Positions 10,168-32,312 are shown, counted from the first letter of the stretch. The stretch: 64,000 nt of DNA from an uncultured Solirubrobacterales bacterium (GCA_963756585.1 CAVWOK010000010.1:524-64523); one strand, 5' to 3'. Notes: a model not told the origin generated them from the letters alone. Made by a program: numbers and translations.

Positions 10168-10212
10168 GGCGGTCCTCCTAGGTGTTCGTGAGCCTCTTCG
10201 GGTCTGTGCGCA

Positions 10213-10884: not shown

Positions 10885-10928
10885 AGCCAGCGATGCGCTG
10901 CGTGAGTTTCCACCCAGGAGGAGTTGGG

Positions 10929-12014
10929 ATGCACATCAGCTTTAAGGGACTCGGAGCGGCCCTGGTTGGGCTTGCGCTCATGGGCGGCGTGGCGGCCTGC
11001 GGTTCTAGCAGCTCTACGAGCACGCCCGCAAGCAGCGGGGGTGCTTCGAACGCATCGAGCTCGAAGAAACTGCCCTTCAGCAGCGTGGCCATCGCGACCC
11101 CGGCGAAGACCAACGACTACGGCTGGAACGCGCAGGGCGTCAACGGCATCAAGGAGGCGGCAACACCGTACGGGCTGAACGTCAAAGTGGTCCAGGACAT
11201 CGGCTATGACAACACCACCGCGGTACTGCGTCAGCTGGCCCTGAGCCACCCCGGACTGATCGTCGCGCACGCGAGTGGCTTTGACACCAACGCCCAGCGG
11301 GTCGCGCAGCAATACCACGTGCCGATGATCACCTATGACATCCCGTCGCTGCTGTCCAAGGGAACGCTGTCGAACATCACCACGTCCAGTCAGCAGGGCG
11401 CCTACCTGGCGGGAATTCTCGCGGCGCATACAACCAAGACCAACAAGGTCGGCGTGATCATCTCCGCATCTGACACGAACTGGTACGAGATGACCGGTGG
11501 CTACGCCGCGGGCGTGCACAGCGTCAACCCGAAGATCCAGATCGTGTTCGGCCAGATCGGCCCCGCATCCTACGACGACGCGGCGGGTGGCAAGCGAGTC
11601 GCTACAAGCATGATCGCCTCCGGAGCCGACGTGATCTTCGCGATGGGCGATGACGCCTCGTTCGGCTACCTGCAGGCAATCGGCAGCGCTCACCCTGGTC
11701 ACAAGGTCTGGTACATCGGTGACATCGGCAACATGACACCGATCGACACCAACCACGTGCTGTTGTCCTCGGTGTTGTGGAACTTCGCCGGCGTCTACAA
11801 GCAGGCGCTCCAGGACATCAAGGCGGGCACGTTCGGGACGCATGGTTACAACCTGACGCTGGCAAACGGCGGGATCTCGCTGCTGCACAGCAAGTACATC
11901 CCGGCGAGCGTCTGGGCAAAGATCGTCGCCGCTCAGAAGAAGATCGAGTCGGGCGCGATCAAAGTGCCGCAAACGACCAAGGCGGCACAGGCCCAGGCGG
12001 AACTGAAGGGCTGA
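10929..12014 (+). CDS. BMP-family (nucleoside-type) ABC substrate-binding lipoprotein
   Basis: Lipobox 'VAAC', 'NDYGWNAQG', 'QQGAYLAGILAA' and 'GADVIF'. Confidence 0.9.
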   Translation: MHISFKGLGAALVGLALMGGVAACGSSSSTSTPASSGGASNASSSKKLPFSSVAIATPAKTNDYGWNAQGVNGIKEAATPYGLNVKVVQDIGYDNTTAVLRQLALSHPGLIVAHASGFDTNAQRVAQQYHVPMITYDIPSLLSKGTLSNITTSSQQGAYLAGILAAHTTKTNKVGVIISASDTNWYEMTGGYAAGVHSVNPKIQIVFGQIGPASYDDAAGGKRVATSMIASGADVIFAMGDDASFGYLQAIGSAHPGHKVWYIGDIGNMTPIDTNHVLLSSVLWNFAGVYKQALQDIKAGTFGTHGYNLTLANGGISLLHSKYIPASVWAKIVAAQKKIESGAIKVPQTTKAAQAQAELKG

Positions 12015-12059
12015 GTCACGTCGGAGTCCGCGTCGCCGCTCGCCGAGCCAGATCCGACC

Positions 12060-13658
12060 GTGCCCGCCCGGTCCGATGAGACCTCCGCGGTCGAGCTGCT
12101 CGGGATCACCAAGACATTCCCCGGCGTGGTTGCCAACGACGATGTCTCGTTGGCGCTGCGCCGAGGCGAGGTGCATTGCCTGCTGGGCGAGAACGGGGCC
12201 GGCAAATCCACGCTGATGGCGATTCTGGCGGGGATGCAACAGCCCGATGCCGGGTGCATCCGGGTCGCCGGCGACGAGGTCCGGATCTCTTCCCCCCGGG
12301 TCGCGCTGAAGCTCGGTATCGGCACGGTCTATCAGCACTCGACGCTGATCGGTGCGTTGTCGGTGATCGAGAACCTGATGCTCGGCGACAGCCGGGCCCT
12401 GCGCCTGGACGTTGCGCGAGCGCGTAAACGGCTCGAGGAGTTCGGCTCGATGCTCGGAGTCGAGATCGATCCCGACGCGCGCGCGGGGGACCTCGCGCTC
12501 GGACGTCAGCAACAGGTCGAGATCATCAAGGCCCTGTGGCGGGGCTCGCGGGTGCTGATCCTCGACGAGCCGACATCGATGCTCACCCCACAGGCCGTGG
12601 CCGAGCTCCAGAACGTGCTTCAGCGGCTCAAGCCGACCGGCCTGGCGATCGTGTTCATTACCCATAAGCTGCACGAGGCAGTAGCCCTTGGCGACCGAAT
12701 CTCCGTCCTTCGGCAGGGCCGGGTGACCGGCACCATCGATCACGAGCGTGTTCGCTCGAGTTCACCGGAGGAGCTCGAGGCCGAGATCGTGCGGCTGATG
12801 TTCGGCGAGTCCGAGGCCGTCGCCGAGCTGCCCGAGCTGCAGTTGGAGGCCGAGGGTCATAGACCCGAGACGATCTCGCGCAACGATGATCAGGTAGCGC
12901 TCGAGCTCAGCCACGCCTCCGCGCGCGGCGAAGGCGCGCAGCCCGGGATCGAGGACGTGTCGCTGACCCTGAGGCTTGGCGAGGTACTGGGTGTGGCCGG
13001 CGTCGATGGCAATGGACAGCGCGCTCTGGCCGAGGTGATCAGTGGCCAGCGGCGCCTGACGCATGGCGAGGTGCGCTTTCTCGGCGCGCCGATCGCGTCG
13101 CTCAGCGTCGCCCAGCGCGAGAAGCTCGGTCTTCGCCATGTCACCGACGATCGCCTCGGCGAGGGGATCGTCGCCGGGCTACCGGTGTCGATCAACCTCG
13201 TGCTCAAGCGAATCGGCCACAGCCCGTACTGGCGCCGCGGCACGATCCGTCGGGACGTCATCGATCGCCAGGCCGAGGCGCTGGTGGATCGCTTCGACAT
13301 CCGCACGCCCAGCGTCCACACTCGAGCCGGGACCCTGTCCGGCGGCAATGTCCAGAAGCTGCTGCTCGCCCGCGAGCTGTCCTTCGATGCCAAGGTCGTG
13401 GTGTTCCACAAGCCCACCTACGGTTTGGACCTGAAGACGACCCGCGCCGTTCGCGGCATCATCGGAGGCCTTCGTGAGCGGGGAGCCGCGCTGCTGATCT
13501 CGACTGACCTCGACGAGCTCCTCGAAGTGTCTGATCGGATCGCGGTCCTGTCCCGGGGGCGGATCGTGGGGATCGTCGACAACGGACCGGGCGCGGGCGA
13601 GCAGGTCGGCAGGCTGATGATCGGTGACGTGACGCTCGGCGTGGAGGCGGTTGTATGA
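12060..13658 (+). CDS. Sugar/nucleoside ABC transporter ATP-binding protein (two NBDs)
   Basis: GENGAGKST, LILDEPT, LSGGNVQK and 'LLISTDLDE'. Confidence 0.93.
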   Translation: MPARSDETSAVELLGITKTFPGVVANDDVSLALRRGEVHCLLGENGAGKSTLMAILAGMQQPDAGCIRVAGDEVRISSPRVALKLGIGTVYQHSTLIGALSVIENLMLGDSRALRLDVARARKRLEEFGSMLGVEIDPDARAGDLALGRQQQVEIIKALWRGSRVLILDEPTSMLTPQAVAELQNVLQRLKPTGLAIVFITHKLHEAVALGDRISVLRQGRVTGTIDHERVRSSSPEELEAEIVRLMFGESEAVAELPELQLEAEGHRPETISRNDDQVALELSHASARGEGAQPGIEDVSLTLRLGEVLGVAGVDGNGQRALAEVISGQRRLTHGEVRFLGAPIASLSVAQREKLGLRHVTDDRLGEGIVAGLPVSINLVLKRIGHSPYWRRGTIRRDVIDRQAEALVDRFDIRTPSVHTRAGTLSGGNVQKLLLARELSFDAKVVVFHKPTYGLDLKTTRAVRGIIGGLRERGAALLISTDLDELLEVSDRIAVLSRGRIVGIVDNGPGAGEQVGRLMIGDVTLGVEAVV

Positions 13659-14851
13659 CCGAACCGCTCTCGTTTCGCGCGCATCCGACCGATGTCGTCG
13701 AGGTTGCGCCGCCGCGCACTGACGAGGGTCCCGCGCCGCCGCGCTCGCGCCGCGTGGCCAAGTTCAACGAAGCGTTGATCCGCTCGATCGTGCCGGTGAT
13801 CCTGGCCCTGCTCGCAGGTGCGCTGCTCCTGGCGATCCTCGGGCGCGACCCCGTCACCTTCTACAGCGACATCTGGCAGAACGGAATCCAGCAGGGGTCC
13901 TGGGCCGACAGCGCGATGCTGGCCGCGCCGCTGCTGCTCATCGCGGTTGGCCTAATCGTCATCTTTCGCGCCAACATCTGGAACCTGGGCTACGACGGCC
14001 AGTACCTCCTGGGGGCGGTCCTGATCACCGGGCTGGCGCCCCACCTGCAGCACGAGCCTCTGGTAGTGGCGATGTTGATCCTGTTTGCCGTCTCGGTGGC
14101 CGCGGGCGCGGCCTGGACGCTCATACCCGCGCTGCTGAAGGCGCGCTATGAGACCAACGAGATCATCACCACGCTAATGATGTCGTTCATCGGGGTGGGC
14201 GTCGCGAACATCCTGGTCAAGGGGCCGTTTCAGGATCCCACGGTCAACATTCCGCAGACGCGCGTGATCCCGCTGAACCGGATGCTTCCGTCGATCCCGG
14301 GGACGAGGGTGCACGTGGGGGTGCTCGTGGCCCTGGCGGCGGCACTTATCGCCTACTACGTGTTGACCCGCACGTCCTTTGGGCTGCGCCTGCACGTGCT
14401 CGGGGCCAACCCGCGCGCTGCCGCGCACGTCGGCGTCAACGTCAAGCGCTTGATCATCAACGCGTTTCTGGTCAGCGGAGCGCTGGTCGGATGCGCGGCC
14501 GCCGTCGACATTCTGGGCGTGTGGGGCTACATGAGGGCGAACTGGAATCCCGCCTACGGGGACACCGTGATCCCGTTCGTGTTCCTGGCCCGGCTGAACC
14601 CGATCGCAGTGATCCCGTTCATCGCGTTCTTCGCGGTTCTGACGACCGGTGGCGACATCGCCGCCTCCAACGCCAACCTGCCGACCGACTTCCTGCTCGT
14701 ACTGGTGGCGCTGATCCTGCTGTTCATGACGATCATCGAATACCTCGGTCGTCAGCGGGAAATGGGTCGCAGCTATCTGACCCCGGGGCTCAGACAGGCG
14801 CTGCGTTGGCCGTTGCTCGGTCGCAAGTCAAGCCGGGAGGCGAGCGCGTGA
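13655..14851 (+). CDS. Nucleoside-type ABC permease 1
   Basis: 'IWNLGYDGQY', 'NEIITTLMM' and 'GANPRAA...G'. Confidence 0.9.
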   Translation: MTEPLSFRAHPTDVVEVAPPRTDEGPAPPRSRRVAKFNEALIRSIVPVILALLAGALLLAILGRDPVTFYSDIWQNGIQQGSWADSAMLAAPLLLIAVGLIVIFRANIWNLGYDGQYLLGAVLITGLAPHLQHEPLVVAMLILFAVSVAAGAAWTLIPALLKARYETNEIITTLMMSFIGVGVANILVKGPFQDPTVNIPQTRVIPLNRMLPSIPGTRVHVGVLVALAAALIAYYVLTRTSFGLRLHVLGANPRAAAHVGVNVKRLIINAFLVSGALVGCAAAVDILGVWGYMRANWNPAYGDTVIPFVFLARLNPIAVIPFIAFFAVLTTGGDIAASNANLPTDFLLVLVALILLFMTIIEYLGRQREMGRSYLTPGLRQALRWPLLGRKSSREASA

Positions 14852-15807
14852 TCACACTTCAATTCGCTGCGGCGAGCAACATCTTCAGCCAGGCGGTGCT
14901 GACCTCGCTGATCGCCGGCGGTCTGGTCGCGGGCGTGCCGCTGATGTTCACGGCGCTGGGCGAGACCATCTCCGAGCGCGCCGGGGTTCTCAACCTGGGG
15001 CTCGAGGGAATGATGCTCCTGGGCGCCTATATCGGCTTCATTGGCGCCTACTACGTGCATTCGGAGATGGTCGGTTTCCTGTTCGGGATCGCCGGCGGCA
15101 TGATCGGCGCCTCGCTGATGGTGATCCTGTGCGTATGGCTGGGGCTCGATCAGATCGTCGTCGGGATCGCCATTACGCTTGCCGGTGAGGGGATCACCAG
15201 CGTGCTCCAAGGCGCACAGTTCGGCACCAGCTATCCACGGCTGGGCGCGCCGTCAACCGTATCGATCCCGATCCTGGACAAGATCCCGGTGCTGGGCCCC
15301 AGCCTCTTCAATCAGTCTCTGCTGGTGTACCTGGGATTTGCCTTCGCGGGTTTCCTGGTGTGGATATTTCGGGCCACCAACCTGGGGCTGAACCTGCGCG
15401 CTGCCGGTGAGAAGCCCGAAGCGCTCGACGCCGCCGGGGTCAGTGTGCTCGCCACCCGGAGCTGGGCGGCGCTCAGCACCGGGGCCCTCGCGGGTCTGGG
15501 AGGCGCGTATCTGGCGATCGTGAGCGCAGGCGTGTTCACACCCTTCATGACCCAGGGTCAGGGCTTTATGGCAATCGTGATCGCCATGCTGGCGCGCGGC
15601 AAGCCGCTATGGGTGGTACTGGGGTCGTTCCTGTTTGGAATCTGCCTCTCGATCGCGACCGCGTTGCAGCTCGCTGGGGTGAACATTTCCACTGATCTGG
15701 TCAACATGCTTCCGTTCATCGCGATCATCGTGTCGCTGGTGGTCTTCGCCCGCAAGTCCTACCTCCCGCCGGCGCTCTGCATTCCCTACGTACGCGGAGC
15801 CAAATGA
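14848..15807 (+). CDS. Nucleoside-type ABC permease 2
   Basis: 'LGETISERAGVLNLGLEGMML', 'GEKPEALDAAGV' and 'GQGFMAI'. GTG start overlaps the upstream stop. Confidence 0.9.
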   Translation: MITLQFAAASNIFSQAVLTSLIAGGLVAGVPLMFTALGETISERAGVLNLGLEGMMLLGAYIGFIGAYYVHSEMVGFLFGIAGGMIGASLMVILCVWLGLDQIVVGIAITLAGEGITSVLQGAQFGTSYPRLGAPSTVSIPILDKIPVLGPSLFNQSLLVYLGFAFAGFLVWIFRATNLGLNLRAAGEKPEALDAAGVSVLATRSWAALSTGALAGLGGAYLAIVSAGVFTPFMTQGQGFMAIVIAMLARGKPLWVVLGSFLFGICLSIATALQLAGVNISTDLVNMLPFIAIIVSLVVFARKSYLPPALCIPYVRGAK

Positions 15808-16535
15808 GCGCAGCTCGTCCCGCCACCGACATACCGTTGGAGAACCGCACACTGCGCGAGCAGGTCGCGGATCACCTCCGCGAGGAGATCCTGGCCAGCC
15901 GCCTGGCGCCGGGGACCGAGCTCGGAGAAGTGATGCTGGCCCAGTCGCTCGGGATCAGCCGGGGGCCGCTGCGCGAGGCGCTGGGCCAGCTCGCCGCCGA
16001 AGGGCTAGTGACGATCGTTCCCCGGCGCGGCGCGGTTGTGAAGACCCTCACCCGGCAGGAGTTCCTGGACGCTTATCAGGTCCGCGAGGCGCTCGAATCT
16101 CTGGCCATCAAGCTCGCCGTCCCGCGCCTGAGCAAAAGCCAGCGCGGAGAGCTGCGCCGCATGTGCCGAGAGATGGAGGCCGAGGCGGCGGCAGGCAACA
16201 CCGAGCGGTTCTTCGAGATCAACCACGACTTCCACGCGCTGCTGGTCCAGGCGTCAGGCAACCAGAAGCTCGAAGAGATGCACGCGCAACTGATCGCTCA
16301 GATGGGGCGCCTGCTCAAAAAATCAGTCGAGCTCCGCGGCGGCGTGCAGCAGTCGGCGGCCGAGCATCGAGAGATCCTGGCCGCGGTCGACGCGGGAGAC
16401 CCCGCGGAAGCGTCTCGCTTGCTCGAGGAGCACATCGAGGTCCCCCAAAGGGTCCTGCGCGCAAGCGCAGCGGGTTCGCTGTTCGAGGCCGACGATGCAC
16501 ACCCACAAGACGAGGAGTCGCGCGCCGATGGCTGA
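15804..16535 (+). CDS. GntR (FCD) family transcriptional regulator
   Basis: 'LAQSLGISRGPLREAL' wHTH followed by FCD domain ('NHDFH...SGN', 'AEHREILAA'). Confidence 0.93.
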   Translation: MSAARPATDIPLENRTLREQVADHLREEILASRLAPGTELGEVMLAQSLGISRGPLREALGQLAAEGLVTIVPRRGAVVKTLTRQEFLDAYQVREALESLAIKLAVPRLSKSQRGELRRMCREMEAEAAAGNTERFFEINHDFHALLVQASGNQKLEEMHAQLIAQMGRLLKKSVELRGGVQQSAAEHREILAAVDAGDPAEASRLLEEHIEVPQRVLRASAAGSLFEADDAHPQDEESRADG

Positions 16536-17568
16536 GTCCAAGCCGCTCCAGTTCGGAGTCAACCTCAACAACCGGGAACCGCTTATCGCTCCGGACTATG
16601 ACCTGCAGGCACTGCTGGCGCTTTCCGAGACCGTGGAGGAGCTCGGCTTTGATTCGGTGTGGGTGGGCGACAGCCTGTTCTCCAAACCTCGCTACGAAGC
16701 GATGACGCTGCTCGCGGCGATCTCGCAGCGGACCCGGCAGGTGTCGCTGGGCACAGCCTGCCTGGTCAGCTCGACGCGCAACCCCTTGTACCTGGCGCTG
16801 GAGTGGGCGACCCTGGACACGATCTCCTCAGGTCGCACGATCCTCGGCCCTTGCATGGGTAACCCCGAGCAGGGTGTGCGGCGCGAGTTCGAGGCGCTGG
16901 GCCTGCCGTTCTCCGACCGCGCGACGGTCTTCGAGGAGGGGCTTGAGGTAATCAACGAGCTGTTCCGGACGGGCAAGACCAGCTTCAAGGGCAAGTACTA
17001 CCGCTACGACGAGGTGGCGTTTCACTCCGGTACGGAGATGGCGCCGCTGGGCCCGTTGCAGACTCCCCCGCCGATCTGGATCGTTTCCAATCCTCGGTTG
17101 GTGGGTGACAAGCCGACCGAGAAGATGCGAGCCATCATGGAGCGCGCTTGCGACAGGATCATCCGGCTCGGCGACGGCTGGATGACCTGCTGCCGGGCCG
17201 AGCATCCCGAGGAGCTCACCGAGCAGATCGGCTATCTGCGCCAGGCGGCAGACCGCCACGACCGCGAGTTCGACGACTACACGGTCGCCTACCAGGTGAC
17301 GATGAACATCGGGGAGTCAAAGGAGCAGGCGCGCGCGGACTTCGACGATTACATCTCCAAGTACTACCCCGAGCTCTCGAGGGCGATGGATCTCTCCAAC
17401 TGGGGACCGGTGGGAACTCCGGAGGACATCGCCGAGTGGCTGCGGGAGTTCCGCGAACGAGGCGTGACCCATTTCATCTGCCGCTTTGGAGCGATCGATC
17501 AGTTCGGGCAGGTGCAGCGCTTCGCACGCGAAGTGTTGCCGGCATTTCAGACCCAGGAGGTGAGCTGA
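16528..17568 (+). CDS. Luciferase-like (LLM) flavin-dependent oxidoreductase
   Basis: 'EELGFDSVWVGDSL', 'LDTISSGRTILG', 'PPIWI' and 'RLGDGW'. Confidence 0.9.
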   Translation: MAESKPLQFGVNLNNREPLIAPDYDLQALLALSETVEELGFDSVWVGDSLFSKPRYEAMTLLAAISQRTRQVSLGTACLVSSTRNPLYLALEWATLDTISSGRTILGPCMGNPEQGVRREFEALGLPFSDRATVFEEGLEVINELFRTGKTSFKGKYYRYDEVAFHSGTEMAPLGPLQTPPPIWIVSNPRLVGDKPTEKMRAIMERACDRIIRLGDGWMTCCRAEHPEELTEQIGYLRQAADRHDREFDDYTVAYQVTMNIGESKEQARADFDDYISKYYPELSRAMDLSNWGPVGTPEDIAEWLREFRERGVTHFICRFGAIDQFGQVQRFAREVLPAFQTQEVS

Positions 17569-17571
17569 AAC

Positions 17572-18600
17572 ATGAGCGTGACCGAAGCAGCGCAGACACC
17601 GACCGACGACGCGATTCGGGCAGACGCCGAGCTGGTCGTCGATGTCTGCATGTCAGTCGAGGCCGACGACGTGGTGACGATCATCACCGACGACGACCAC
17701 ACCGACCAGGCGCGTATGGTGGCCGACGTATGCGTCGACCGCGGTGCCTGGCCCGTGGTCATGAACAACGAGACCCAGGTCCGCCGGGGGTTGGCCGACA
17801 CGCTGTTTCCGATGGCCCCGCCTCGCAACCTGCACCAGGCGATGGTGAGCTCGGACGAGATCATCATCATCACCAACCTCGAGTGGGCCAACCGCTTCGC
17901 CCACGTGTCGGCGGTCAAGGAGTCGTGCGGGGCCAACGCCAAGATCGCCTCGGTCGAGCCCGGGATGGGCTCCTGGGGGCTGACCGAAGAGGCGCTGCTG
18001 CGAGCCCAGCGGCGTGCCTGGGACGCGATGGCGGCGCTGGAGGGCGTTGAGAAGGTGCGCGTCACCTCGGCCAGGGGGACCGACTTCACCGTCACGATCA
18101 AGGACCGCCCCGCGCTCGAGGTCGCCTCGATCAAGAAGCGCGGCCAGATGATGGGGCCACTGCCGCTGTGGGCCGAGGTTGCTTTCGCGGCCGTCGAGGA
18201 CAAGACCGTGGGCAGGATGGTCGTCGACGGCGTGATGCTGGGAATCGGGCTGCCCGGCCAGGTCAAGGAGCCGATCACATGGACGATCGAGAACGGTAAA
18301 GCGGACAAGATCGAGGGCGGCGAAGAGGCGCGCCGGCTGCGCGAGGTGGTGGAAGGAGTCGAGAACTCGACCGTGATTGGCGAGTTCGCCTTCGGCGTCA
18401 GCGAGGTGGCTCCGTTCGGGACGCCGTCGGAAAAGGGCCGCGTCGGAACCGTGCACTGCGCGCTGGGCGACAACCACAACGCCTATCCAGGCGGCCAGAA
18501 CGTGTGCACACTGCACCTCGACGGGGTGGTGCTCGATGCCTCGATGCAGATCGTCGACAACGGCCGCTGGATCCTCAAGGACGGCCAATGGGTGCTGTAG
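17572..18600 (+). CDS. M29/aminopeptidase T-fold metallohydrolase
   Basis: 'VRVTSARGTDFT', 'LPLWAEV', 'IGEFAFG', 'SEKGRVGTVHCALG' and 'HLDG' give the E/E/E/H/H/D ligand pattern. Confidence 0.75.
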   Translation: MSVTEAAQTPTDDAIRADAELVVDVCMSVEADDVVTIITDDDHTDQARMVADVCVDRGAWPVVMNNETQVRRGLADTLFPMAPPRNLHQAMVSSDEIIIITNLEWANRFAHVSAVKESCGANAKIASVEPGMGSWGLTEEALLRAQRRAWDAMAALEGVEKVRVTSARGTDFTVTIKDRPALEVASIKKRGQMMGPLPLWAEVAFAAVEDKTVGRMVVDGVMLGIGLPGQVKEPITWTIENGKADKIEGGEEARRLREVVEGVENSTVIGEFAFGVSEVAPFGTPSEKGRVGTVHCALGDNHNAYPGGQNVCTLHLDGVVLDASMQIVDNGRWILKDGQWVL

Positions 18601-18977
18601 ACCGAGAAGCGGTCAAGACCGTCACGCTCGAGGACATCGAGCCGATCCCGCTGCCGGGCGGGAGCTGGAGCCGGATGGTACTCAACAACAAGTCGCTGCG
18701 CGGAAATGGGTCGTCGCTGGGCTATTCGGTGTTCACCCCTGGATGTGTCACTGCGATGGTGTCGCACGAGACCGAAGAGGTGGCATATGTGGTCTCGGGG
18801 TCCGGTGAACTACGTCTCGAAGCTGAATGCGTGCCGTTCGCGGCCGGACAGGGGCTGTTCATCCCCGCCCGGACTTGGCACGCGGTGGCCAACACCGGCG
18901 AGCAGGACGTGATCATGGTGTTCGGGTTCCCGTATCCCGATTACCCGCCGACCGAGCGCAAGGACACCGCGGCGTGA
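18588..18977 (+). CDS. Cupin domain protein
   Basis: 'SHETEEVAYVVSGSG' and 'LFIPARTWHAVANTG' cupin motifs. Confidence 0.85.
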   Translation: MGAVDREAVKTVTLEDIEPIPLPGGSWSRMVLNNKSLRGNGSSLGYSVFTPGCVTAMVSHETEEVAYVVSGSGELRLEAECVPFAAGQGLFIPARTWHAVANTGEQDVIMVFGFPYPDYPPTERKDTAA

Positions 18978-19723
18978 GCTTGTCGGCAACAGCGGGAGGG
19001 CGCCTCACCGGCGAGGACCGACGCCTGGTCCACGACGTGGCCTGGGCGTGCCGGATCCTGGCCATGGTCGGCTATGAGGACCTGACGCTCGGTCATGTCA
19101 GCGCGCGCGGCTCCGATGACCGCACGGTCTACATCAAACGCAAGGGCATCGCACTTGGCGAGGTGACGCCGGCCGATGTGCTGGCAGTAGATCTCGGCGA
19201 TAACACCTCCGGGGGCGGCAACGGGATGCACCTGGAGACCGTGCTCCATACCGAGGTCTACAAGCGCCGCCCGGACGTGCGCAGCGTAGTTCATGGTCAT
19301 CCGGTGTACGCGACCGCGTTCGGCGCCACCGACGCCGAGTTCTCGTTTCTGACCCATGACAGCGTGCTGTTCATAAAGGGCATCTCGACCTATGACGGGG
19401 TGCCTGATCTGATCATGGATCAGCGCCAGGGAGCGCTCGTGGCGGAGGCCCTCGGAGACGGCACGGCGCTGCTGTTGCGCAACCACGGCGTGCTGGTGGC
19501 CGAGCGTGACGTCCGCTGGGCGGTGCTGGCCAGCGCTCTGCTCGAACGTGCCACTCAGATGCAGCTGCTGGCTACCTCGTTCGGTCCGCTGCACCCGATC
19601 CCGGAGCCGATGCTGGAGGGCATACACGCCTCCAAGTACCAGCACGACTTCGCCGTTGAGTACTGGGACGCCTGGATCCGGGAGCTTCGCCGACGCGGGC
19701 GAGCGTTCGAGATGGCGCAATAG
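18974..19723 (+). CDS. Class II aldolase/adducin family protein (candidate HMPDC decarboxylase)
   Basis: 'GHVSAR', 'ETVLHTEVYKRRPDVRSVVHGHP' and 'LLRNHG'. Confidence 0.85.
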   Translation: MSLSATAGGRLTGEDRRLVHDVAWACRILAMVGYEDLTLGHVSARGSDDRTVYIKRKGIALGEVTPADVLAVDLGDNTSGGGNGMHLETVLHTEVYKRRPDVRSVVHGHPVYATAFGATDAEFSFLTHDSVLFIKGISTYDGVPDLIMDQRQGALVAEALGDGTALLLRNHGVLVAERDVRWAVLASALLERATQMQLLATSFGPLHPIPEPMLEGIHASKYQHDFAVEYWDAWIRELRRRGRAFEMAQ

Positions 19724-19728
19724 AGCTG

Positions 19729-20181
19729 ATGGATCTGTGCCTGACCGTCAACGGCCGAGAGGTCCGCGAAAGTATCGAGCCCCAAGAGCTGCTGCTCGAC
19801 TTCCTGCGCGAGCGGCTGCGGCTGACCGGGGCCAAGCGTTCGTGTGACGTCCAGGTCTGCGGGGCCTGCACCGTGCTCGTCGACGGCGGGCCGGTGAGCG
19901 CCTGTAACTATCTGGCGGTCGAGGCCCAAGGACGTGAGGTGCTGACTGTGGAGGGGTTTGCCCAGACGCTCGAGTTCGCGCAGTTCGAGGCGGCGTTCGT
20001 GCGCCACGCGGCGCTCCAGTGCGGGTACTGCACTCCGGGGCTGCTGTTGACCCTCAAGAGCCTGCGCGACACCGGCGAGCTTGCCACCGAGGATGACATT
20101 CGCCACGGGCTCGACGGCAACCTGTGTCGCTGCACCGGGTATCGATCCATACTTGAAGCCGCCCGGGAGATCGCCCGGTGA
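19729..20181 (+). CDS. Molybdenum hydroxylase [2Fe-2S] small subunit (CoxS-like)
   Basis: 'GAKRSCDVQVCGACTV', 'QCGYCTPG' and 'GNLCRCTGY'. Confidence 0.95.
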   Translation: MDLCLTVNGREVRESIEPQELLLDFLRERLRLTGAKRSCDVQVCGACTVLVDGGPVSACNYLAVEAQGREVLTVEGFAQTLEFAQFEAAFVRHAALQCGYCTPGLLLTLKSLRDTGELATEDDIRHGLDGNLCRCTGYRSILEAAREIAR

Positions 20182-22478
20182 CGGTCATCGAGCGGCCCGC
20201 GCTGCGCGAGGTCGGAACTTCGCGACCGCGCAAGGACGCGCGCGAAAAGCTATCGGGCGAGGCTCAGTTCGTGGGCGACATGGAGGTCGCCGGGATGCTG
20301 CACGGCAGCGTCGTGCGCAGCCCGTATGCCCACGCCCTGATTCGCGGCATCGACTCAAGCGCAGCCCTCGAGCGCGACGGAGTCGTTGCCGTGCTGACCA
20401 GCGCCGACCTCCAGGACATCGAGCCCTATTACGGCCACGCCATCAAGGACCGGCCGATCGTGGCGCTGGACCGGGTTCGATTCGCCGGTGAGCCCGTCGC
20501 CGCTGTAGCGGCGGTCGACGAAGCGACCGCCGAGGCGGCGGTGCGCGCGATCGAGGTCGACTACGAGCCGCTGCCGGTGCTGGACACCCTCGATCTGGCC
20601 CTGTCGCCTGGAGCTCCGCGGCTGCACGACCGCCGCCCGCAAATCGGCCTGTTTCACGGCCTCGGAGAGCTCGGCGAGGAGCAGGGCAACATCTGCTACC
20701 GCCACCTGATCTCCGCCGGGGACATCGATCAAGCCCGTGCGGAGGCGTCGATCACGGTGGAGGGGGAGTACCTATTCCCCGCCGTTTACCAGTACGCGAT
20801 GGAGACCCACGCCACGATCGCCCATTACCACGGCGACGGAGTGACCCTGTGGGCCAACTGCCAGCACCCATTCCTTGTCCAGGCCGAGATCGCGGACCTG
20901 TTCGGTCTGGAGATCGGACAGGTCCGGATCATCGTCTCCTACCTGGGCGGCGGCTTCGGCTCGAAGTCCTACACGAAGATCGAACCGCTGACCGTCGCCC
21001 TGGCGCGCAAGGCGGGACGGCCGGTGAGGATCGTCAACCGGGTCGAGGAGTCGATGGTGACTTCGCGCCGCCACGGAATGCGCTGCTGGATGCGCACCAG
21101 CGCTGCGGCCGACGGAAGGTTGCTGGCGCGCGAGGTGAACTTTTGGATGGACACCGGAGCTTATGCCGACAATGGGCCGCGGGTGACGGCCACGGCCGCG
21201 GACGCCGCGCCCGGCCCGTACCGCTTCACAGCTGTCGAGGTGGACGGCAACTGCGTGTACTGCAACACCCCCCCGTCGGGCTCCTACCGCGCATTCGGTG
21301 CCACCCATCTGCAATGGATCGGCGAGTCGCAGCTCGACGAGGTGGCGCGACGGGCGGGCCTCGACCCGTTGGAGCTGCGCCAGCGCAATCTGGTGGTGAC
21401 CGGTGATCCGGTCCGGCCCGACGGCAGCGGCAAGCCGCTCGACGCAGACCTGATCGGCGACGTCGAGCGAGCGGCCTTGGGGGTCGGCTGGGATGAGCCC
21501 AGACGACCATGGGTGGGTCGCGGGGTCAGCGTAGGGTTGCTGGCCGCCGGGGCCCACCCGGTCTCGCGGGCCTCGGTCCGTCTGTGCTCGGATGGGTCGG
21601 CCGACGTGTACGTGGGGACCACCGAGCTTGGACAGGGGCCCCGCACGGTCATGGCTCAGATTGCCGCCGAGGAGATCGGAATCACCAGCGACCTCGTGCG
21701 CGTCCACGGCGCCGACACCCGGTTCACTCCGTACGACCGCTCGACCGGCGCCAGCCGTTCGACGACGATTGCCGGCCTGGCGGTCAAGCGCGCCGCCAAT
21801 GCCGTGGCCGACCGTCTGCGCGAGACGGCGGCCGAGGCGTGGGACGTCGAGCCCGAAGTGGTCGAACTTACGGGCGGGCGGGCTGAGTTCGCCGGCGAGG
21901 AGATCTCATTCGAGGACCTGATCTTTCGACGGTTTGGGTTCCGCGGCGGGGAGATCATCGAAGGCGGCGAGGTCAGGCCCACCGGAGGCGACACCGGGTC
22001 ATACGCGGAGGGCCCGCATTTCTGGGAAGTTTGCGTCGCGGGCGCTGAGGTCGAGGTGGACCCGAACACAGGCGTGGTTACGGTTTTGCGCACGTCGACC
22101 GTCGCCGACGTCGGCAAGGCGATCAACCCGCAGCTTGTCGAGCGCCAGGACGAGGGCGCGACCCTCCAGGGCATCGGCAACGCGCTGTTTGAGGAGATGC
22201 GGTTCGACGGTGGCCAGGTCGTCAACGACAGCCTGCTCGAGTATCGGGTCCCGCGGATCGCCGACCTGCCTCGCGAGATGACCTCGATCATCGTCGAGAA
22301 TGAAGACGGCCCTGGACCGTACGGCGCCAAGGGATGCGGCGAGGGTGCATTTGCGGCGGTGCCCGCGGCCATCGTCTGCGCGCTGGCCGACGCGGGGGTG
22401 CCGATGAATGAGTTGCCGCTGACCCCCGAGCGCGTGTGGCGCCGGATCCAAGAGCTGTCGAAGGTGCCAACCCCCTGA
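20178..22478 (+). CDS. Molybdenum hydroxylase large (MoCo-binding) subunit, xanthine dehydrogenase family
   Basis: 'RSPYAHA', 'AMETH', 'LGGGFGSK', 'YRAFG', 'GTTELGQG' and 'GAKGCGE'. Confidence 0.95.
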   Translation: MTVIERPALREVGTSRPRKDAREKLSGEAQFVGDMEVAGMLHGSVVRSPYAHALIRGIDSSAALERDGVVAVLTSADLQDIEPYYGHAIKDRPIVALDRVRFAGEPVAAVAAVDEATAEAAVRAIEVDYEPLPVLDTLDLALSPGAPRLHDRRPQIGLFHGLGELGEEQGNICYRHLISAGDIDQARAEASITVEGEYLFPAVYQYAMETHATIAHYHGDGVTLWANCQHPFLVQAEIADLFGLEIGQVRIIVSYLGGGFGSKSYTKIEPLTVALARKAGRPVRIVNRVEESMVTSRRHGMRCWMRTSAAADGRLLAREVNFWMDTGAYADNGPRVTATAADAAPGPYRFTAVEVDGNCVYCNTPPSGSYRAFGATHLQWIGESQLDEVARRAGLDPLELRQRNLVVTGDPVRPDGSGKPLDADLIGDVERAALGVGWDEPRRPWVGRGVSVGLLAAGAHPVSRASVRLCSDGSADVYVGTTELGQGPRTVMAQIAAEEIGITSDLVRVHGADTRFTPYDRSTGASRSTTIAGLAVKRAANAVADRLRETAAEAWDVEPEVVELTGGRAEFAGEEISFEDLIFRRFGFRGGEIIEGGEVRPTGGDTGSYAEGPHFWEVCVAGAEVEVDPNTGVVTVLRTSTVADVGKAINPQLVERQDEGATLQGIGNALFEEMRFDGGQVVNDSLLEYRVPRIADLPREMTSIIVENEDGPGPYGAKGCGEGAFAAVPAAIVCALADAGVPMNELPLTPERVWRRIQELSKVPTP

Positions 22479-22492
22479 ACAAGGAAGCGACT

Positions 22493-23419
22493 ATGAGCGT
22501 GAGCGAACCGAGCCGGGCCACAATTCTCGGAACGGGCACGATGGGCCCAGGCATGGGCGCTGTCCTCGCCCGGGCCGGTATGCCGGTGACACTGTTCGAC
22601 GTCAACTCCGAAGCGCTCGACCGCGCCAAAGTCACGGTGGGCATGGTCGAGGGAGTGCTCGACCGGCTCGAGGTCCCAGTGCGTGACGGCGGCGGCCTTG
22701 CCTACGAAACCGATCAGCCGTCGGCACTCGATGGGGCCGAGATCGTGGTCGAGGCGATCCCCGAGCAGATCGAGCTCAAGCGTCAGGTGTTCGCAGAGAT
22801 CGAGGATCAGATCTCTGCCGAGGCGATCATCGCCTCCAACACGTCAGGCATCCCGGTGACCAAGCTCGCCGAGGGACTGAAGCATCCCGAACGGGTGATC
22901 GGCTGGCACTGGTCGAACCCGCCGCATCTGATCCCCATGAACGAGGTGATCCCCGGCGAGCAGACCGCTCCCGAGGTCACGAGCGCGATCGAGGCCCTCA
23001 CCCGGCGGATCGGCTATCACCCGGTGACGCTGAAGAAGGAGGCCCCGGGATTCGTAGAGAATCGGGTGCTGTACGCGATCATGCGCGAGTGCCTGGCGCT
23101 CGTGGATGAGGGCGTGATCGACGTCGAAGGCCTCGACCTGTGCGTGAAATGGGGGATCGGCTACAAGCTCGCGGTGGTGCCGCCGATCCAGCTGCTCGAC
23201 ATGGCCGGGCTGGACATCTACACCAGCGTGGCCAGCTATCTCAACCAGTCGCTCTCAAACGAGACCGGGGTGTCCAGCACGGCGACCGGACTCAAGGAGG
23301 ACGGGCGGCTGGGGATCAAGACCGGCGGGGGCTTCTTCGACTACACGCCAGAGCGAGTCAAGGAGCTTGGACAACAACGGGCTGCGGCCCTGGTGGCCGT
23401 ACGAAAGGCACTGGACTGA
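22493..23419 (+). CDS. 5-formyl-3-hydroxy-2-methylpyridine-4-carboxylate 5-dehydrogenase (3-hydroxyacyl-CoA dehydrogenase family)
   Basis: 'GTMGPGM', 'HWSNPPH', 'PGFVENRVLYA', 'WGIGYKLAV' and 'LLDMAGLDIY' match M. loti FHMPCDH as recalled. Confidence 0.82.
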   Translation: MSVSEPSRATILGTGTMGPGMGAVLARAGMPVTLFDVNSEALDRAKVTVGMVEGVLDRLEVPVRDGGGLAYETDQPSALDGAEIVVEAIPEQIELKRQVFAEIEDQISAEAIIASNTSGIPVTKLAEGLKHPERVIGWHWSNPPHLIPMNEVIPGEQTAPEVTSAIEALTRRIGYHPVTLKKEAPGFVENRVLYAIMRECLALVDEGVIDVEGLDLCVKWGIGYKLAVVPPIQLLDMAGLDIYTSVASYLNQSLSNETGVSSTATGLKEDGRLGIKTGGGFFDYTPERVKELGQQRAAALVAVRKALD

Positions 23420-23422
23420 ACG

Positions 23423-24214
23423 ATGGCAAAGGCAACGAAGGTACGGCTGCTCGACAGCGGAACGCTGGTGATCGACCAGTCACATATCACCTGGAACATC
23501 GGCTGCGGCACGCCGGTGCGCTTTCCGGTGTACAGCGTGCTCATCGAGCACCCTGACGGGCTGTTCATGTTTGACAGTGGCTATGACCTCGATCTGGTCA
23601 ACGCGATGCTGCCGTTTGAGTTGCCCGAGCAGACGCCGGACCAGACCGTTGCCTCCCAGCTGGACAAGTGTGGCTTCAAGCCCGCGGACGTCGGCGCGCT
23701 GATCAACTCGCATCTCCATTTCGATCACTGCGGCGGTAACAAACAGCTCGCCAACGCGGTGACCTACCTGCATCGCGAAGAGCTCCGCGAGGCGCGCTCA
23801 CCGGAGCCGTTTGAGCGGCTGGGGTATGCGGATAAGGGGTACGACCATCCCGATTCGAGGTTTGAGCTGCTCGACGGCGACGTGTTGTTCGCCGACGGCG
23901 TTCATCTGTTCCACACCCCGGGCCACACGGTGGGCCACTACTCGATGCTCATCGAGCTCGAAGGCAGCCATCCCCTGCTGTTCATGGCCGATGTCTCCTA
24001 TACCAAGACGGCGTTTGAGCACGACCAGCAGGCTGGCTTTCACAACAATCCCGTCGATGGCGTTCGCTCCATCGCCCGGATCAAGCGCCTGGCTAAGGAG
24101 TGGGGCGCCGAGGTCATCTTCACCCACGACATGGATGCGTTTAGGTCCTATGCGCTGGCGCCCGAGCCGTTTACCGGCAGCCGTGCACTCTCGGCTGCGG
24201 GAGGCGGCGCATGA
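23423..24214 (+). CDS. 4-pyridoxolactonase (metallo-beta-lactamase fold)
   Basis: 'VRFPVYSVLIEH', 'LPFELP', 'NSHLHFDHCGGNK', 'PFERLGY', 'GFHNNPVDGV' and 'HDMD' match M. loti lactonase as recalled. Confidence 0.85.
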   Translation: MAKATKVRLLDSGTLVIDQSHITWNIGCGTPVRFPVYSVLIEHPDGLFMFDSGYDLDLVNAMLPFELPEQTPDQTVASQLDKCGFKPADVGALINSHLHFDHCGGNKQLANAVTYLHREELREARSPEPFERLGYADKGYDHPDSRFELLDGDVLFADGVHLFHTPGHTVGHYSMLIELEGSHPLLFMADVSYTKTAFEHDQQAGFHNNPVDGVRSIARIKRLAKEWGAEVIFTHDMDAFRSYALAPEPFTGSRALSAAGGGA

Positions 24215-24942: not shown

Positions 24943-25340
24943 TGGCGGTGGACGTCGCCCGCGCCGGCGTGATCCTGGCGGTGTCCGACTTCGCGCGCTC
25001 GGTGGCCTTCTACCGCGACCAGCTCGGCTTTGAAGTCGAGGCGGAGTACGACGATCCGCCGTATGCGACGCTGGACAGAGCCGGCATGCGTCTCTCGCTG
25101 GCCGAGCAGGGCCACCCGGCCGAGGACCGGCCGGGGGTGGAGATGGTGGCTCCCTCGGACCCGTCGCGGTTGCCCGCGATCCTGGTACTCGAGGTGAGCG
25201 ACTGTCTGCGCAGTTTTCGCGAGCTCAGCGCGGTCGGCGTGCCGTTTCTGGCCGACCCCTACTCACCACCGTGGGGAGGCCACCGTTGCTTTGCTATCGA
25301 TCCGGACCGCAACCTGATCGAACTCGAGGAGCCGGCGTGA
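24942..25340 (+). CDS. VOC/glyoxalase family protein
   Basis: 'VSDFARSVAFYRDQLGF' and 'PPWGGHRCFAIDPDRNLIEL'. ATG overlaps the upstream TGA. Confidence 0.85.
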   Translation: MAVDVARAGVILAVSDFARSVAFYRDQLGFEVEAEYDDPPYATLDRAGMRLSLAEQGHPAEDRPGVEMVAPSDPSRLPAILVLEVSDCLRSFRELSAVGVPFLADPYSPPWGGHRCFAIDPDRNLIELEEPA

Positions 25341-32289: not shown

Positions 32290-32312
32290 CGCGTGTGCGT
32301 AATGATCAGTTC

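Follow-up and report, generated by a model that had tools for sequence, protein, structure and literature searches.

A proposed MHPCO-free route for the lower part of vitamin B6 catabolism, centred on a luciferase-like oxidoreductase, a NicX/M29-fold metalloenzyme and a cupin

In a Solirubrobacteraceae genome, an operon for vitamin B6 catabolism includes a trio of translationally coupled genes, encoding a luciferase-like (LLM) oxidoreductase, a NicX/M29-fold metalloenzyme and a small single-domain cupin. With a probability of about 0.5, this trio forms the centre of a different lower branch of B6 catabolism, one which works without MHPCO and with a molybdenum (Mo) hydroxylase and an aldolase-fold decarboxylase. 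The module probably opens the pyridine ring of B6 without a classical oxygenase, and possibly without any O2. No description of this pathway variant was found in the literature searched. The initial annotation had suggested that the trio replaces MHPCO and the AAMS hydrolase, and this idea is largely supported, with no convincing MHPCO orthologue found among the candidates checked; what it left out is the Mo hydroxylase.

The window is the whole 64,000-nucleotide stretch of DNA that was analysed. The three genes lie on its plus strand where they had initially been placed, overlapping or adjacent between a regulator and a decarboxylase candidate, and their boundaries were refined here. The regulator is of the GntR-FCD family (15804..16535, plus strand; PF00392 and PF07729), and its stop overlaps by 8 nt with the ATG start, at 16528, of the LLM gene (16528..17568, plus; 346 aa; PF00296, E 9.8e-45). 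The gene for the NicX/M29-fold enzyme, called the M29-like protein below, follows (17572..18600, plus; 342 aa; PF02073, 38.3 bits against a cut-off of 27), and then that for the cupin (18588..18977, plus; 129 aa; Cupin_2, PF07883, E 4.7e-14), whose likely start is ATG 18588, giving a 13 nt overlap with the M29-like stop. A class II aldolase-fold metalloprotein (18974..19723, plus; PF00596) starts at GTG 18974, in a GTGA overlap with the end of the cupin gene. Next on the plus strand are the 2Fe-2S subunit (19729..20181; PF01799 and PF00111) and the molybdopterin (MoCo) subunit (20178..22478; PF02738, PF20256 and PF01315) of an XDH-family Mo hydroxylase, and the FAD subunit (8096..8974, minus; PF00941 and PF03450) is found in a divergent arm in the window.

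The neighbouring genes belong to the upper part of B6 catabolism. On the plus strand they encode an FHMPC dehydrogenase (FHMPC-DH)-like member of the 3-hydroxyacyl-CoA-dehydrogenase family (22436..23419; NF042925, 408 bits, below the cut-off of 500), a 4-pyridoxolactonase (23423..24214; NF047925, 357.3 bits, above 325) and an SDR-type pyridoxal 4-dehydrogenase (PLDH; 24211..24942; NF047923, 369.9 bits, above 325). Translationally coupled to PLDH is a VOC/glyoxalase-fold protein of 132 aa (24942..25340, plus; PF00903, E 5.9e-16; start codon checked). After it comes a Zn-dependent alcohol dehydrogenase (25271..26374, plus; PF08240 and PF00107; 36/46 loci), whose true start is probably near 25340 and which is a candidate for hydroxymethyl oxidation of pyridoxine or 4-pyridoxic acid. 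The minus strand carries a class V aminotransferase resembling pyridoxamine-pyruvate aminotransferase (PPAT; 8971..10167; NF046070, 434 bits, below 600). A BMP-type 'putative B6' ABC transporter, consisting of a substrate-binding protein, an ATPase and two permeases (10893..15807, plus; NF047927-NF047930), has an ATPase at 727.8 bits against a cut-off of 670 and a second permease at 449.9 against 400. The PLDH, the lactonase and the transporter ATPase all exceed NCBIfam equivalog cut-offs.

Orthologous loci were surveyed to see how constant this arrangement is: 80 are of the LLM type, 46 of them have full flanks, and per-gene counts take those loci whose contig reaches far enough. The genes for the GntR regulator, LLM, M29-like protein, cupin, aldolase-fold protein and 2Fe-2S and MoCo subunits occur together in 46/46 full-flank loci, which come from Thermoleophilia and Actinomycetes (Actinomycetota) and from Chloroflexota. 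Counted over loci with sufficiently long contigs, four of these genes are never missing: the LLM gene is there in 75/75, the cupin gene in 77/77, that for the aldolase-fold protein in 72/72 and that for the MoCo subunit in 58/58. Chance falls far short of accounting for this constancy. The trio is thus only part of the functional unit, to which a Mo hydroxylase of the XDH type and a class II aldolase-fold protein always belong. The trio is not typically found without B6 genes, a possibility that the initial annotation had raised: the FHMPC-DH-like and lactonase genes are present in 43 of the 46 full-flank loci, and PLDH in 41. Minimal Chloroflexota clusters are reduced to little more than the trio plus genes for the decarboxylase, the Mo enzyme and the FHMPC-DH-like enzyme, and contain no other conserved amidase. 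VOC orthologues, 63% identical, are placed in the same way in at least 15 loci; the gene is found where it could be traced, which did not succeed for every LLM-type locus. In locus L083, an M29-like relative (33% identical) is again directly 3' of an LLM gene, with XDH-type MoCo genes, an Amidohydro_2 gene, CoxG and a VOC gene as neighbours.

The classical enzymes were also looked for. Across the 80 loci, the surrounding 10 kb contain no conserved MHPCO-type flavoprotein and no conserved alpha/beta (AAMS) hydrolase, and PF01494 proteins are absent from the cluster and its vicinity. In the genome, 3 of 18 PF01494 matches were scanned against NCBIfam, with no MHPCO-specific family among the matches listed; a 382-aa PF01494 protein, the sole one compared with the PDB, matched NicC at 1.6e-33 and MHPCO, over its N-terminal part only, at 2e-21.

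Four homologous loci are of an anaerobe type, from Thermodesulfobacteriota (L142), Ca. Aerophobetes (L143) and two other MAGs (L141 and L137). These clusters retain the M29-like, cupin, XDH-subunit, FHMPC-DH-like (38% identical) and PPAT-like genes and a B6-type ABC transporter, and they have no LLM, class II aldolase or VOC gene. Instead they encode a PreA/dihydropyrimidine-dehydrogenase-like FMN/Fe-S reductase (NF006183, 208.6 bits; DPD 1gt8, E 1.9e-26), a UbiD decarboxylase and aldehyde:ferredoxin oxidoreductases (AOR), homologues of which were found neither in the 80 LLM-type loci nor in this genome. In L142, as in the Chloroflexota loci, the FAD subunit gene is inside the operon, just 5' of the 2Fe-2S gene. 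The AOR and ferredoxin genes and the taxonomy suggest that the anaerobe MAGs run the cluster without oxygen, and set subtraction over the four loci points to the PreA-like reductase as the equivalent of the LLM. DPD-type enzymes reduce a heterocyclic C=C, which is followed by hydrolytic ring opening. Altogether these non-homologous gene swaps favour an O2-independent sequence of hydroxylation, reduction and hydrolysis.

The LLM was initially thought suited to flavin-dependent oxygenation or reduction of the ring. Because it is swapped for a PreA/DPD-like reductase in anaerobes, reduction of the ring or of an enoate is favoured over oxygenation, and we propose that it reduces the hydroxylated pyridone ring or its ring-opened enoate. 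Judging from its relatives, the enzyme is probably F420-dependent. Its best NCBIfam match is TIGR03619 (the F420 Rv2161c family) at 119.5 bits, below the cut-off of 166.9, and the next-best families, all below cut-off as well, are mostly F420 families too. Its best PDB matches are Mer and Fgd, with FMN-dependent luciferases close behind and RutA among the weaker ones; the score under the cut-off and the nearness of the luciferases weigh against this assignment. The genome encodes CofD (279.1 bits against a cut-off of 257.45) and, inside a 769-aa FbiC-like ORF, CofH (403.6 bits against 374.1), and the LLM version of the cluster is restricted to F420-producing phyla. The use of F420, which had been offered as one option, is therefore plausible, and the remark which accompanied it, that no flavin reductase was seen, holds across the orthologous loci surveyed, where none is conserved in the cluster.

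Of all proteins in the module, the M29-like one is best conserved, with 47-55% identity even to its homologues in anaerobe clusters. The dinuclear hydrolase pattern noticed at the outset is real. All five M29 metal ligands are kept (E202 in WAEV, E271 in IGEF, H295 in VH, and H315 and D317 in HLD; E287 is in SEK), and in profile-to-PDB alignments they fall on the five metal ligands of the aminopeptidases PepS, AmpS and AmpT. Among 36 family representatives of 25-52% identity, none departs from E271 or H295, and E202, H315 and D317 are each kept in at least 90%. Sequence comparison assigns the protein to the NicX branch (PF26233, listed for this family) and not to the classical M29 aminopeptidases. 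The profile match to NicX is full length at E 5e-29, versus 2.5e-15 for M29 peptidases, and the top Foldseek matches are the NicX structures 7cn3 and 7cup at TM 0.73-0.76, versus 0.59-0.70 for peptidases (0.51-0.61 for M29 aminopeptidases when normalised to the target). In direct pairwise comparison the match to NicX is marginal, at E 0.35. The PF02073 match is partial, with residues 154-302 covering profile positions 197-350 of 406, in a protein of 342 aa versus about 410. That the protein is overall nearer to NicX, an O2-dependent dioxygenase, than to peptidases is a point against an O2-free view.

The Fe(II) ligands of NicX are His265, Ser302, His318 and Asp320, and its substrate is bound by Glu177 and His189, with His105 assisting (PMC7910607). 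The four ligands align with E271, A297, H315 and D317, so that two of the four differ; of the substrate residues, E177 is V184 and H189 is P196, and the equivalent of H105, H111, is conserved. Conversely, E202 and H295 are conserved in the M29-like family and lost in NicX, which at the differing M29 ligand sites carries F, H265, L and S302 (PMC7910607). Some relatives of 37-42% identity adjoin a NicD-like alpha/beta hydrolase or a gene of the Amdase/maleate-isomerase family. The genomic context argues for a small-molecule amide substrate, with no sign of a peptidase role. Hydrolase is the better reading, and we propose a ring-opening or C-N-cleaving hydrolase. It counts against this proposal that, to our knowledge, no lactam hydrolase with an M29/NicX fold is known.

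The cupin gene is directly 3' of the M29-like gene in L137 and L141-L143 too. Its triad H60/E64/H98 is invariant in 76 orthologues, and V58 stands where the HxH motif has its first His. The initial suggestion was that it could isomerise or cleave. Since the LLM swap in anaerobes suggests that the M29-like protein and the cupin act without O2, ring cleavage by the cupin is disfavoured; it is probably an O2-independent isomerase, tautomerase or decarboxylase. The aldolase-fold protein matches pyruvic oxime dioxygenase (POD; E 7e-32) and NovR (6e-18) more closely than Mlr6791, the HMPDC decarboxylase of M. loti (1e-15). Its nearest solved relative being an Fe(II) dioxygenase is a further point against an O2-free view. 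Its replacement by UbiD in anaerobes still supports the decarboxylase role initially assigned to this neighbour, and it is a probable decarboxylase of a B6-derived pyridine carboxylate. The Mo hydroxylase is proposed to act at C6, the sole free ring carbon of the B6 skeleton. Hydroxylation there would yield exactly the 2,5-dihydroxypyridine core on which NicX-type enzymes act, which likewise sits uneasily with an O2-free view.

In the proposed pathway, upper-pathway enzymes would convert pyridoxal or pyridoxamine to 4-pyridoxic acid and then to a 3-hydroxy-2-methylpyridine carboxylate, from which one carboxyl group would be lost next. The Mo hydroxylase would place a water-derived hydroxyl on C6, which is unsubstituted and adjacent to the ring nitrogen, giving a 5-hydroxy-2-pyridone. 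With F420H2, the LLM would reduce the conjugated C=C of the lactam or of its opened form, and the NicX/M29-fold enzyme, using an M29-type metal site, would hydrolyse the ring C-N (lactam) bond. The cupin would tautomerise, isomerise or decarboxylate the product, and the nitrogen would be released as ammonia. O2 would be needed at no step. Gene content, residue conservation, fold, synteny, the gene swaps in anaerobes and the F420 biosynthesis genes of the genome are direct observations; from them we infer every substrate, whether reduction or hydrolysis comes first, and which cofactor and metal are used.

A different route would follow from taking the kinship with NicX at face value. The Mo hydroxylase would make a 2,5-dihydroxypyridine-type intermediate, the M29-like protein would be a mononuclear Fe(II) dioxygenase cleaving C2-C3 with O2 to an N-acetyl-maleamate derivative, and the LLM and cupin would act downstream, for example in ene reduction or decarboxylation. 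NicX is the best full-length profile and fold match, the equivalents of its H318, D320 and H105 are conserved, the gene neighbours of some relatives fit, and a 3-hydroxypyridine hydroxylated at C6 belongs to its substrate class. We consider this route unlikely, however, given the exchange of H265 and S302 for E271 and A297, the loss of E177 and H189 (PMC7910607), and the near or full invariance of two M29 ligands which NicX lacks. Furthermore, the M29-like protein and the cupin persist beside AOR and ferredoxin genes in anaerobic lineages, and the minimal cluster has no amidase to complete such a pathway. The oxygen-dependent step could also be sought in another small metalloprotein (the cupin, the VOC protein or the POD-like aldolase-fold protein) which would cleave a gentisate-like hydroxylated intermediate, leaving the M29-like protein as only a downstream amidase and the LLM as a downstream reductase. 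The best PDB match of the cupin is indeed gentisate 1,2-dioxygenase (E 1.6e-9), its invariant triad is of the 2-His-1-Glu kind, the aldolase-fold protein is closest to a POD and the VOC gene is conserved. This reading is highly improbable, as the cupin is kept in anaerobe clusters, the aldolase-fold protein lacks the POD residues Q53 and E164 and is exchanged for UbiD there, and the VOC gene is missing from those clusters and could be traced in only some of the LLM-type loci.

The scheme in the initial annotation made the LLM a flavin-dependent ring-opening monooxygenase on HMPC, replacing MHPCO, with the M29-like protein hydrolysing an AAMS-like acetamide; the Mo hydroxylase would then serve another step. 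LLM enzymes that open N-heterocycles exist, RutA is among the distant matches, and the M29 ligand set fits amide hydrolysis. The nearest relatives are nonetheless F420 enzymes with no linked flavin reductase, the anaerobe replacement is a reductase and not an oxygenase, and a Mo hydroxylase co-conserved in 58/58 loci is left unexplained, which makes the scheme quite improbable. Least probable of all is that the trio does not open the ring, the LLM being for instance an F420-dependent alcohol dehydrogenase on the 5-hydroxymethyl group of 4-pyridoxic acid, the other two proteins peripheral, and ring opening encoded elsewhere. F420-dependent LLMs do include the alcohol dehydrogenases Adf and Fgd, and the absence of MHPCO and the AAMS hydrolase was checked in part of the candidates. 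But no other members are as constant and as well conserved across the aerobic and anaerobic versions as the M29-like protein and the cupin, and the minimal Chloroflexota clusters carry little beyond the trio, a decarboxylase, a Mo enzyme and an FHMPC-DH-like gene.

Compared with known systems, the operon shares with B6 pathway I of Mesorhizobium loti and Pseudomonas MA-1 the PLDH, 4-pyridoxolactonase, FHMPC-DH-like and PPAT-like genes and a probable decarboxylation step. Where the lower branch of pathway I uses MHPCO and AAMS hydrolase, the present operon has its Mo hydroxylase, LLM, NicX/M29-fold enzyme and cupin, and the product of its decarboxylase-fold gene is no more than a distant relative of Mlr6791. 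The M29-like protein has the short two-domain fold, of about 340 aa, of the 2,5-dihydroxypyridine 5,6-dioxygenase NicX/Hpo (7CN3; PMC7910607), but its family occurs in anaerobe clusters too. With the M29 aminopeptidases AmpS (1ZJC), PepS (4ICQ) and AmpT (2AYI) it shares the five metal residues and a PF02073 match above cut-off; it differs from them in being about 70 residues shorter, in aligning well over only the C-terminal domain, and in its catabolic context. PyrA (pyridine), TpdA (tetramethylpyrazine) and RutA (uracil) likewise combine the LLM fold, an N-heterocyclic substrate and a subsequent amide hydrolase, but they depend on FMNH2 and O2 and are partnered by a flavin reductase, whereas the present LLM has F420 enzymes as its nearest relatives, lacks a linked reductase and corresponds in anaerobes to a protein that is itself a reductase. 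Eubacterium barkeri ferments nicotinate with nicotinate dehydrogenase, 6-hydroxynicotinate reductase and enamidase, and reductive pyrimidine catabolism uses DPD/PreTA and dihydropyrimidinase. The proposed B6 branch differs from both in that the reductase is an LLM, the hydrolase has a NicX/M29 fold and is not of the amidohydrolase superfamily, and the substrate is the B6 skeleton. By analogy with these two routes, a Mo hydroxylase would make a pyridone, a low-potential reductase would saturate the conjugated C=C, and a metal hydrolase would open the lactam.

The window has a GC content of about 67%, and its nearest proteins are named from Solirubrobacteraceae MAGs. The annotation of a divergent cluster at 8.1-26.4 kb makes a good case for vitamin B6 catabolism. 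The minus-strand arm of this cluster carries the FAD subunit of a xanthine-dehydrogenase (XDH) family Mo hydroxylase (8096-8974) and a gene resembling pyridoxamine-pyruvate aminotransferase (PPAT; 8971-10167). The plus-strand arm holds a BMP-type ABC transporter named "putative B6" by NCBIfam (10893-15807), a GntR-FCD regulator (15804-16535), a luciferase-like oxidoreductase (LLM; 16528-17568), an M29-like gene (17572-18600), a cupin (18588-18977), a class II aldolase-fold gene (18974-19723), the 2Fe-2S and MoCo subunits of the Mo hydroxylase (19729-20181 and 20178-22478), an FHMPC-dehydrogenase-like gene (22436-23419), the NCBIfam-named 4-pyridoxolactonase (23423-24214) and SDR-type pyridoxal 4-dehydrogenase (PLDH; 24211-24942), a VOC/glyoxalase-fold gene of 132 aa (24942-25340), and a Zn-dependent alcohol dehydrogenase that ends at 26374. 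Start and stop codons overlap throughout, from the GntR gene to the aldolase-fold gene. Four of the proteins exceed their NCBIfam equivalog cut-offs (the ABC ATPase, one permease, the PLDH and the lactonase); the PPAT-like and FHMPC-dehydrogenase-like proteins, the substrate-binding protein and the second permease fall slightly under theirs. NF047924 and NF047926, considered as further B6 models, were ruled out as an unrelated T6SS effector and an integrase.

Some features of the layout are side observations. The ATG of the VOC gene overlaps the PLDH stop codon (TGATG) and is masked by a spurious 509-aa ORF; at least 15 related loci have a 63% identical orthologue in this place. The FAD subunit (8096-8974, minus strand) is coupled to the PPAT-like gene, apart from its partners at 19729-22478 on the plus strand; in Chloroflexota and in a Thermodesulfobacteriota locus it is within the operon, directly upstream of the 2Fe-2S gene and, in Chloroflexota, directly after the aldolase-fold gene. 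Downstream of the cluster a GMC-family oxidoreductase is split across overlapping plus-strand frames (27049-28002 and 27788-29158) into an N-terminal FAD-binding part and a GMC_oxred_C part, possibly through a frameshift or as a pseudogene. The enzyme might formerly have been a pyridoxine 4-oxidase or 4-pyridoxic acid dehydrogenase; none of the 80 orthologous loci has a homologue. The class III aminotransferase, HDAC-family deacetylase and S58 (DmpA-like) peptidase at 30047-33422, just downstream of the cluster, are likewise not conserved with it in other loci.

A scan of one genome per species gave 129 confirmed relatives, of which the best 80 (66-93% identity) were analysed. Each of the 80 is a MAG; the hosts belong to Chloroflexota, to Thermoleophilia (Solirubrobacterales, Gaiellales, Miltoncostaeaceae) and to other Actinomycetota. 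Metagenome clusters of the same groups, soil Thermoleophilia among them, number in the hundreds and add to the 129 genome matches. Synteny was counted in the 46 loci that extend 9 kb or more to each side. The GntR, LLM, M29-like, cupin, aldolase-fold, 2Fe-2S and MoCo genes are each present in all 46, two seeming absences of the LLM being frameshifted assemblies. The FHMPC-dehydrogenase-like gene and the lactonase each occur in 43 of the 46, the PLDH in 41, the transporter ATPase and both permeases in 39 each, the substrate-binding protein in 37, the Zn-dependent alcohol dehydrogenase in 36 and the PPAT-like gene in 34. Only subsets of loci have the VOC gene, CoxG, an Amidohydro_2 gene (22 loci) or an M20 amidohydrolase (13 loci), and no FAD monooxygenase or alpha/beta hydrolase is conserved around the LLM-type loci. 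The initial annotation had proposed the LLM, M29-like and cupin genes as a candidate replacement for MHPCO and AAMS hydrolase. Their tie to B6 genes is borne out by the lactonase, PLDH and FHMPC-dehydrogenase-like counts, but the functional unit is larger than this trio, since the Mo hydroxylase and the aldolase-fold protein always come with it. Read from its genes, the module would be B6 catabolism with a different lower branch.

To our knowledge, vitamin B6 catabolism is known genetically from one oxygenase-dependent route only, that of MHPCO and AAMS hydrolase in M. loti. The window's own genome has 18 matches to PF01494, and on the window's contig the only one is the dinucleotide-binding motif of the GMC gene. 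Three of the 18 were scanned, and no MHPCO-specific NCBIfam family was among the matches listed for them. A 382-aa protein, the only one compared with the PDB, matched NicC better (1.6e-33) than MHPCO (2e-21, a match confined to the N-terminal part). With three of the 18 candidates scanned, this is suggestive of a genome that is missing MHPCO. A search with the lactonase against plasmids for a classical rhizobial B6 cluster returned AttM lactonases only, at about 33% identity. In the literature searched, no B6 pathway with a Mo hydroxylase, F420, an LLM or NicX is described. Elsewhere in the same genome as the window (G000:C7:209021-213316), about 3 kb separates two genes for class A flavoprotein monooxygenases. 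One of them is of the PRK06847 subfamily and closest to 6-hydroxynicotinate 3-monooxygenase NicC, and the pair may mark a further locus for pyridine or aromatic catabolism.

The metal-binding pattern that the initial annotation had read in the M29-like protein holds: E202 (WAEV), E271 (IGEF), E287 and H295 (SEK...VH), and H315 and D317 (HLD). Among 36 full-length representatives (25-52% identity), E271 and H295 are invariant and E202, H315 and D317 are at least 90% conserved, and in profile-to-PDB alignments the conserved residues line up with the five that bind metal in the aminopeptidases PepS, AmpS and AmpT. A single-sequence PDB search found barely anything (NicX at E 0.35). The family profile matches NicX over the whole length (E 5e-29) and M29 peptidases chiefly in the C-terminal half (E 2.5e-15 to 1e-8). 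The AlphaFold model (pLDDT 92.3) superposes best on NicX (TM 0.73-0.76) and then on M29 peptidases (TM 0.59-0.70), and in a wider collection the family carries the label PF26233 "NicX". NicX binds one Fe(II) through H265, S302, H318 and D320 and holds its substrate with E177, H189 and H105 (PMC7910607). In the M29-like protein the Fe(II) ligands align with E271, A297, H315 and D317 and the substrate residues with V184, P196 and H111, while the extra M29 ligands E202 and H295 are F194 and L300 in NicX. The predicted catalytic make-up thus differs from that of NicX. The protein falls outside NicX by its ligands and outside the M29 peptidases by its architecture: it combines the short NicX architecture with a full peptidase-type site.

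This is a large family (about 1300 clusters at 50% identity) whose members are everywhere annotated "aminopeptidase". In 20 Actinomycetota genomes, distant paralogues at 24-30% identity have neighbours of a housekeeping kind (formiminotransferase, HDAC-like, phosphatase) and were set aside as having no bearing on this subfamily. The window's own genome has a second short NicX/M29 paralogue at 27% identity (G000:C26:41647-42582; 9536-10480 of locus L117), which adjoins a formiminotransferase-like gene in a block that also holds metallo-beta-lactamase-fold and tRNA synthetase genes. An M29-like gene with a similar-sized upstream neighbour recurs in three related genomes (L126, L129 and L135).

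A sister subfamily about 50% identical to the window's M29-like protein occurs in Ca. Aerophobetes, Thermodesulfobacteriota, Anaerolineales and other lineages. Four of its loci, from metagenomes and MAGs, were examined: L137, L141, L142 (GCA_040752995.1, Thermodesulfobacteriota) and L143 (GCA_014859225.1, Ca. Aerophobetes). The clusters keep the M29-like gene with a cupin directly downstream (38-52% identity) and a gene 36-38% identical to the FHMPC-dehydrogenase-like gene; the PPAT-like gene is kept in L141 and L143. XDH subunits and a B6-type ABC transporter are present in L141 and L142 (in L142, NF047927 at 336 bits and NF047930 at 569 bits), and the L137 and L143 contigs stop before these positions. 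The LLM and the class II aldolase are in none of the four. The clusters instead have a PreA/dihydropyrimidine-dehydrogenase-like FMN/Fe-S protein (NF006183, 208.6 bits; DPD 1gt8, E 1.9e-26), a UbiD-family decarboxylase and one or two aldehyde:ferredoxin oxidoreductases (AOR), with a ferredoxin gene beside the AORs in L141 and L143; in L137, a short contig, this replacement set is partial. Neither the 80 LLM-type loci nor the window's genome has a homologue of the PreA-like, UbiD or AOR proteins.

Once the shared genes are subtracted, the aldolase-fold protein is paired with UbiD and the LLM with the PreA-like enzyme, and because of these counterparts we infer that the first pair are both decarboxylases and the second both reductases. 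In DPD/PreA chemistry the conjugated C=C bond of a heterocyclic lactam is saturated, and hydrolytic ring opening follows immediately. AOR-type enzymes are oxygen-sensitive, and finding them in one operon with the M29-like protein and the cupin implies that these two function without O2. These four clusters are candidates for an anaerobic vitamin B6 catabolic pathway. In another related locus (L083, 7000-9400) an M29-like relative of 33% identity directly follows an LLM, whose reading frame is broken by an N in the contig sequence. A VOC gene stands beside the M29-like gene, and CoxG, an Amidohydro_2 gene and two sets of XDH-type MoCo genes are nearby. This locus suggests that the Mo hydroxylase, the LLM and the M29-like protein can be reused together as a triad; the pathway it encodes is probably related and directed at another N-heterocyclic carboxylate.

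The LLM is probably F420-dependent. Its best family model is F420-type (TIGR03619, 119.5 bits, under the 166.9 cut-off), most of the next-best families are likewise F420 families, and its closest structures are Mer and Fgd, with FMN luciferases close behind. CofD and an FbiC-like protein containing CofH both score above cut-off in the window's own genome, the cluster has no linked flavin reductase, and the LLM version of the cluster is found solely in F420-producing phyla. A homologue search returned only orthologues with generic names, and so does not discriminate between F420 and FMN.

In the route that these genes make most likely, the upper pathway would yield a 3-hydroxy-2-methylpyridine carboxylate, one carboxyl group being taken off by the aldolase-fold protein (or UbiD). 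The Mo hydroxylase would hydroxylate C6, the sole free ring carbon and next to the nitrogen, with OH from water. The LLM with F420H2 (or the PreA-like enzyme) would reduce the conjugated double bond and the M29-like protein would hydrolyse the lactam C-N bond, in either order, and the cupin (invariant triad H60/E64/H98) would then act on the product. By mass balance, HMPC and four H2O could give succinic semialdehyde, acetate, CO2 and NH3. We put at roughly 0.4 the probability of the full reading: O2-independent B6 ring opening by Mo hydroxylation, F420H2 (in the anaerobes PreA-like) reduction and hydrolysis by a NicX/M29-fold enzyme of a new catalytic type among N-heterocycle ring hydrolases, as the first genetic basis of anaerobic B6 catabolism (in Thermodesulfobacteriota and Ca. 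Aerophobetes) and as a pathway widespread in soil Actinomycetota and Chloroflexota.

The main rival casts the M29-like protein as a NicX-like dioxygenase whose substrate would be the 2,5-dihydroxypyridine-type compound made by C6 hydroxylation. This is chemically attractive and backed by the overall homology, and some relatives adjoin an alpha/beta hydrolase or Amdase-family gene; however, the ligands differ, the protein is present in the anaerobe clusters, and the cluster has no downstream amidase. The initial annotation had seen the LLM as an oxygenase, but the F420 signal and its exchange for a PreA-like reductase in the anaerobe clusters make that role less likely. It is also possible that the cupin, the VOC protein or a POD-like protein serves as a dioxygenase in the aerobes only. 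The structures nearest to the aldolase-fold protein (18974-19723) are Fe(II) pyruvic oxime dioxygenases (POD; 8ix6, 8iqa and 8il8, E 7e-32 to 7e-28), ahead of the M. loti HMPDC decarboxylase (2z7b, E 1e-15). It retains the His triad and the H104 equivalent, but identity as a POD was rejected: the match is far short of the E<1e-60 typical for true PODs, and Q53 and E164 are replaced by H and Q. A gentisate-type dioxygenase role for the cupin was down-weighted, as the cupin is kept in the anaerobe clusters.

The hydrolytic, O2-independent reading has consequences beyond this cluster. Should the mechanism be borne out, both the NicX/M29-fold hydrolase and the anaerobic version would count as considerably more novel. 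If the chemistry is true, a vitamin that many microbes compete for could also be mineralised independently of O2, the large NicX/M29-short family would gain its first function that is neither dioxygenase nor peptidase, an uncharacterised F420-type LLM clade would have a physiological substrate, and NicX would have descended from hydrolase-like relatives already acting on hydroxylated pyridines. Whereas the classical B6 route consumes O2 and NADH, the route proposed here could, by the same mass balance, gain a net two reducing equivalents, following the same logic as nicotinate fermentation and reductive pyrimidine catabolism with other protein families.
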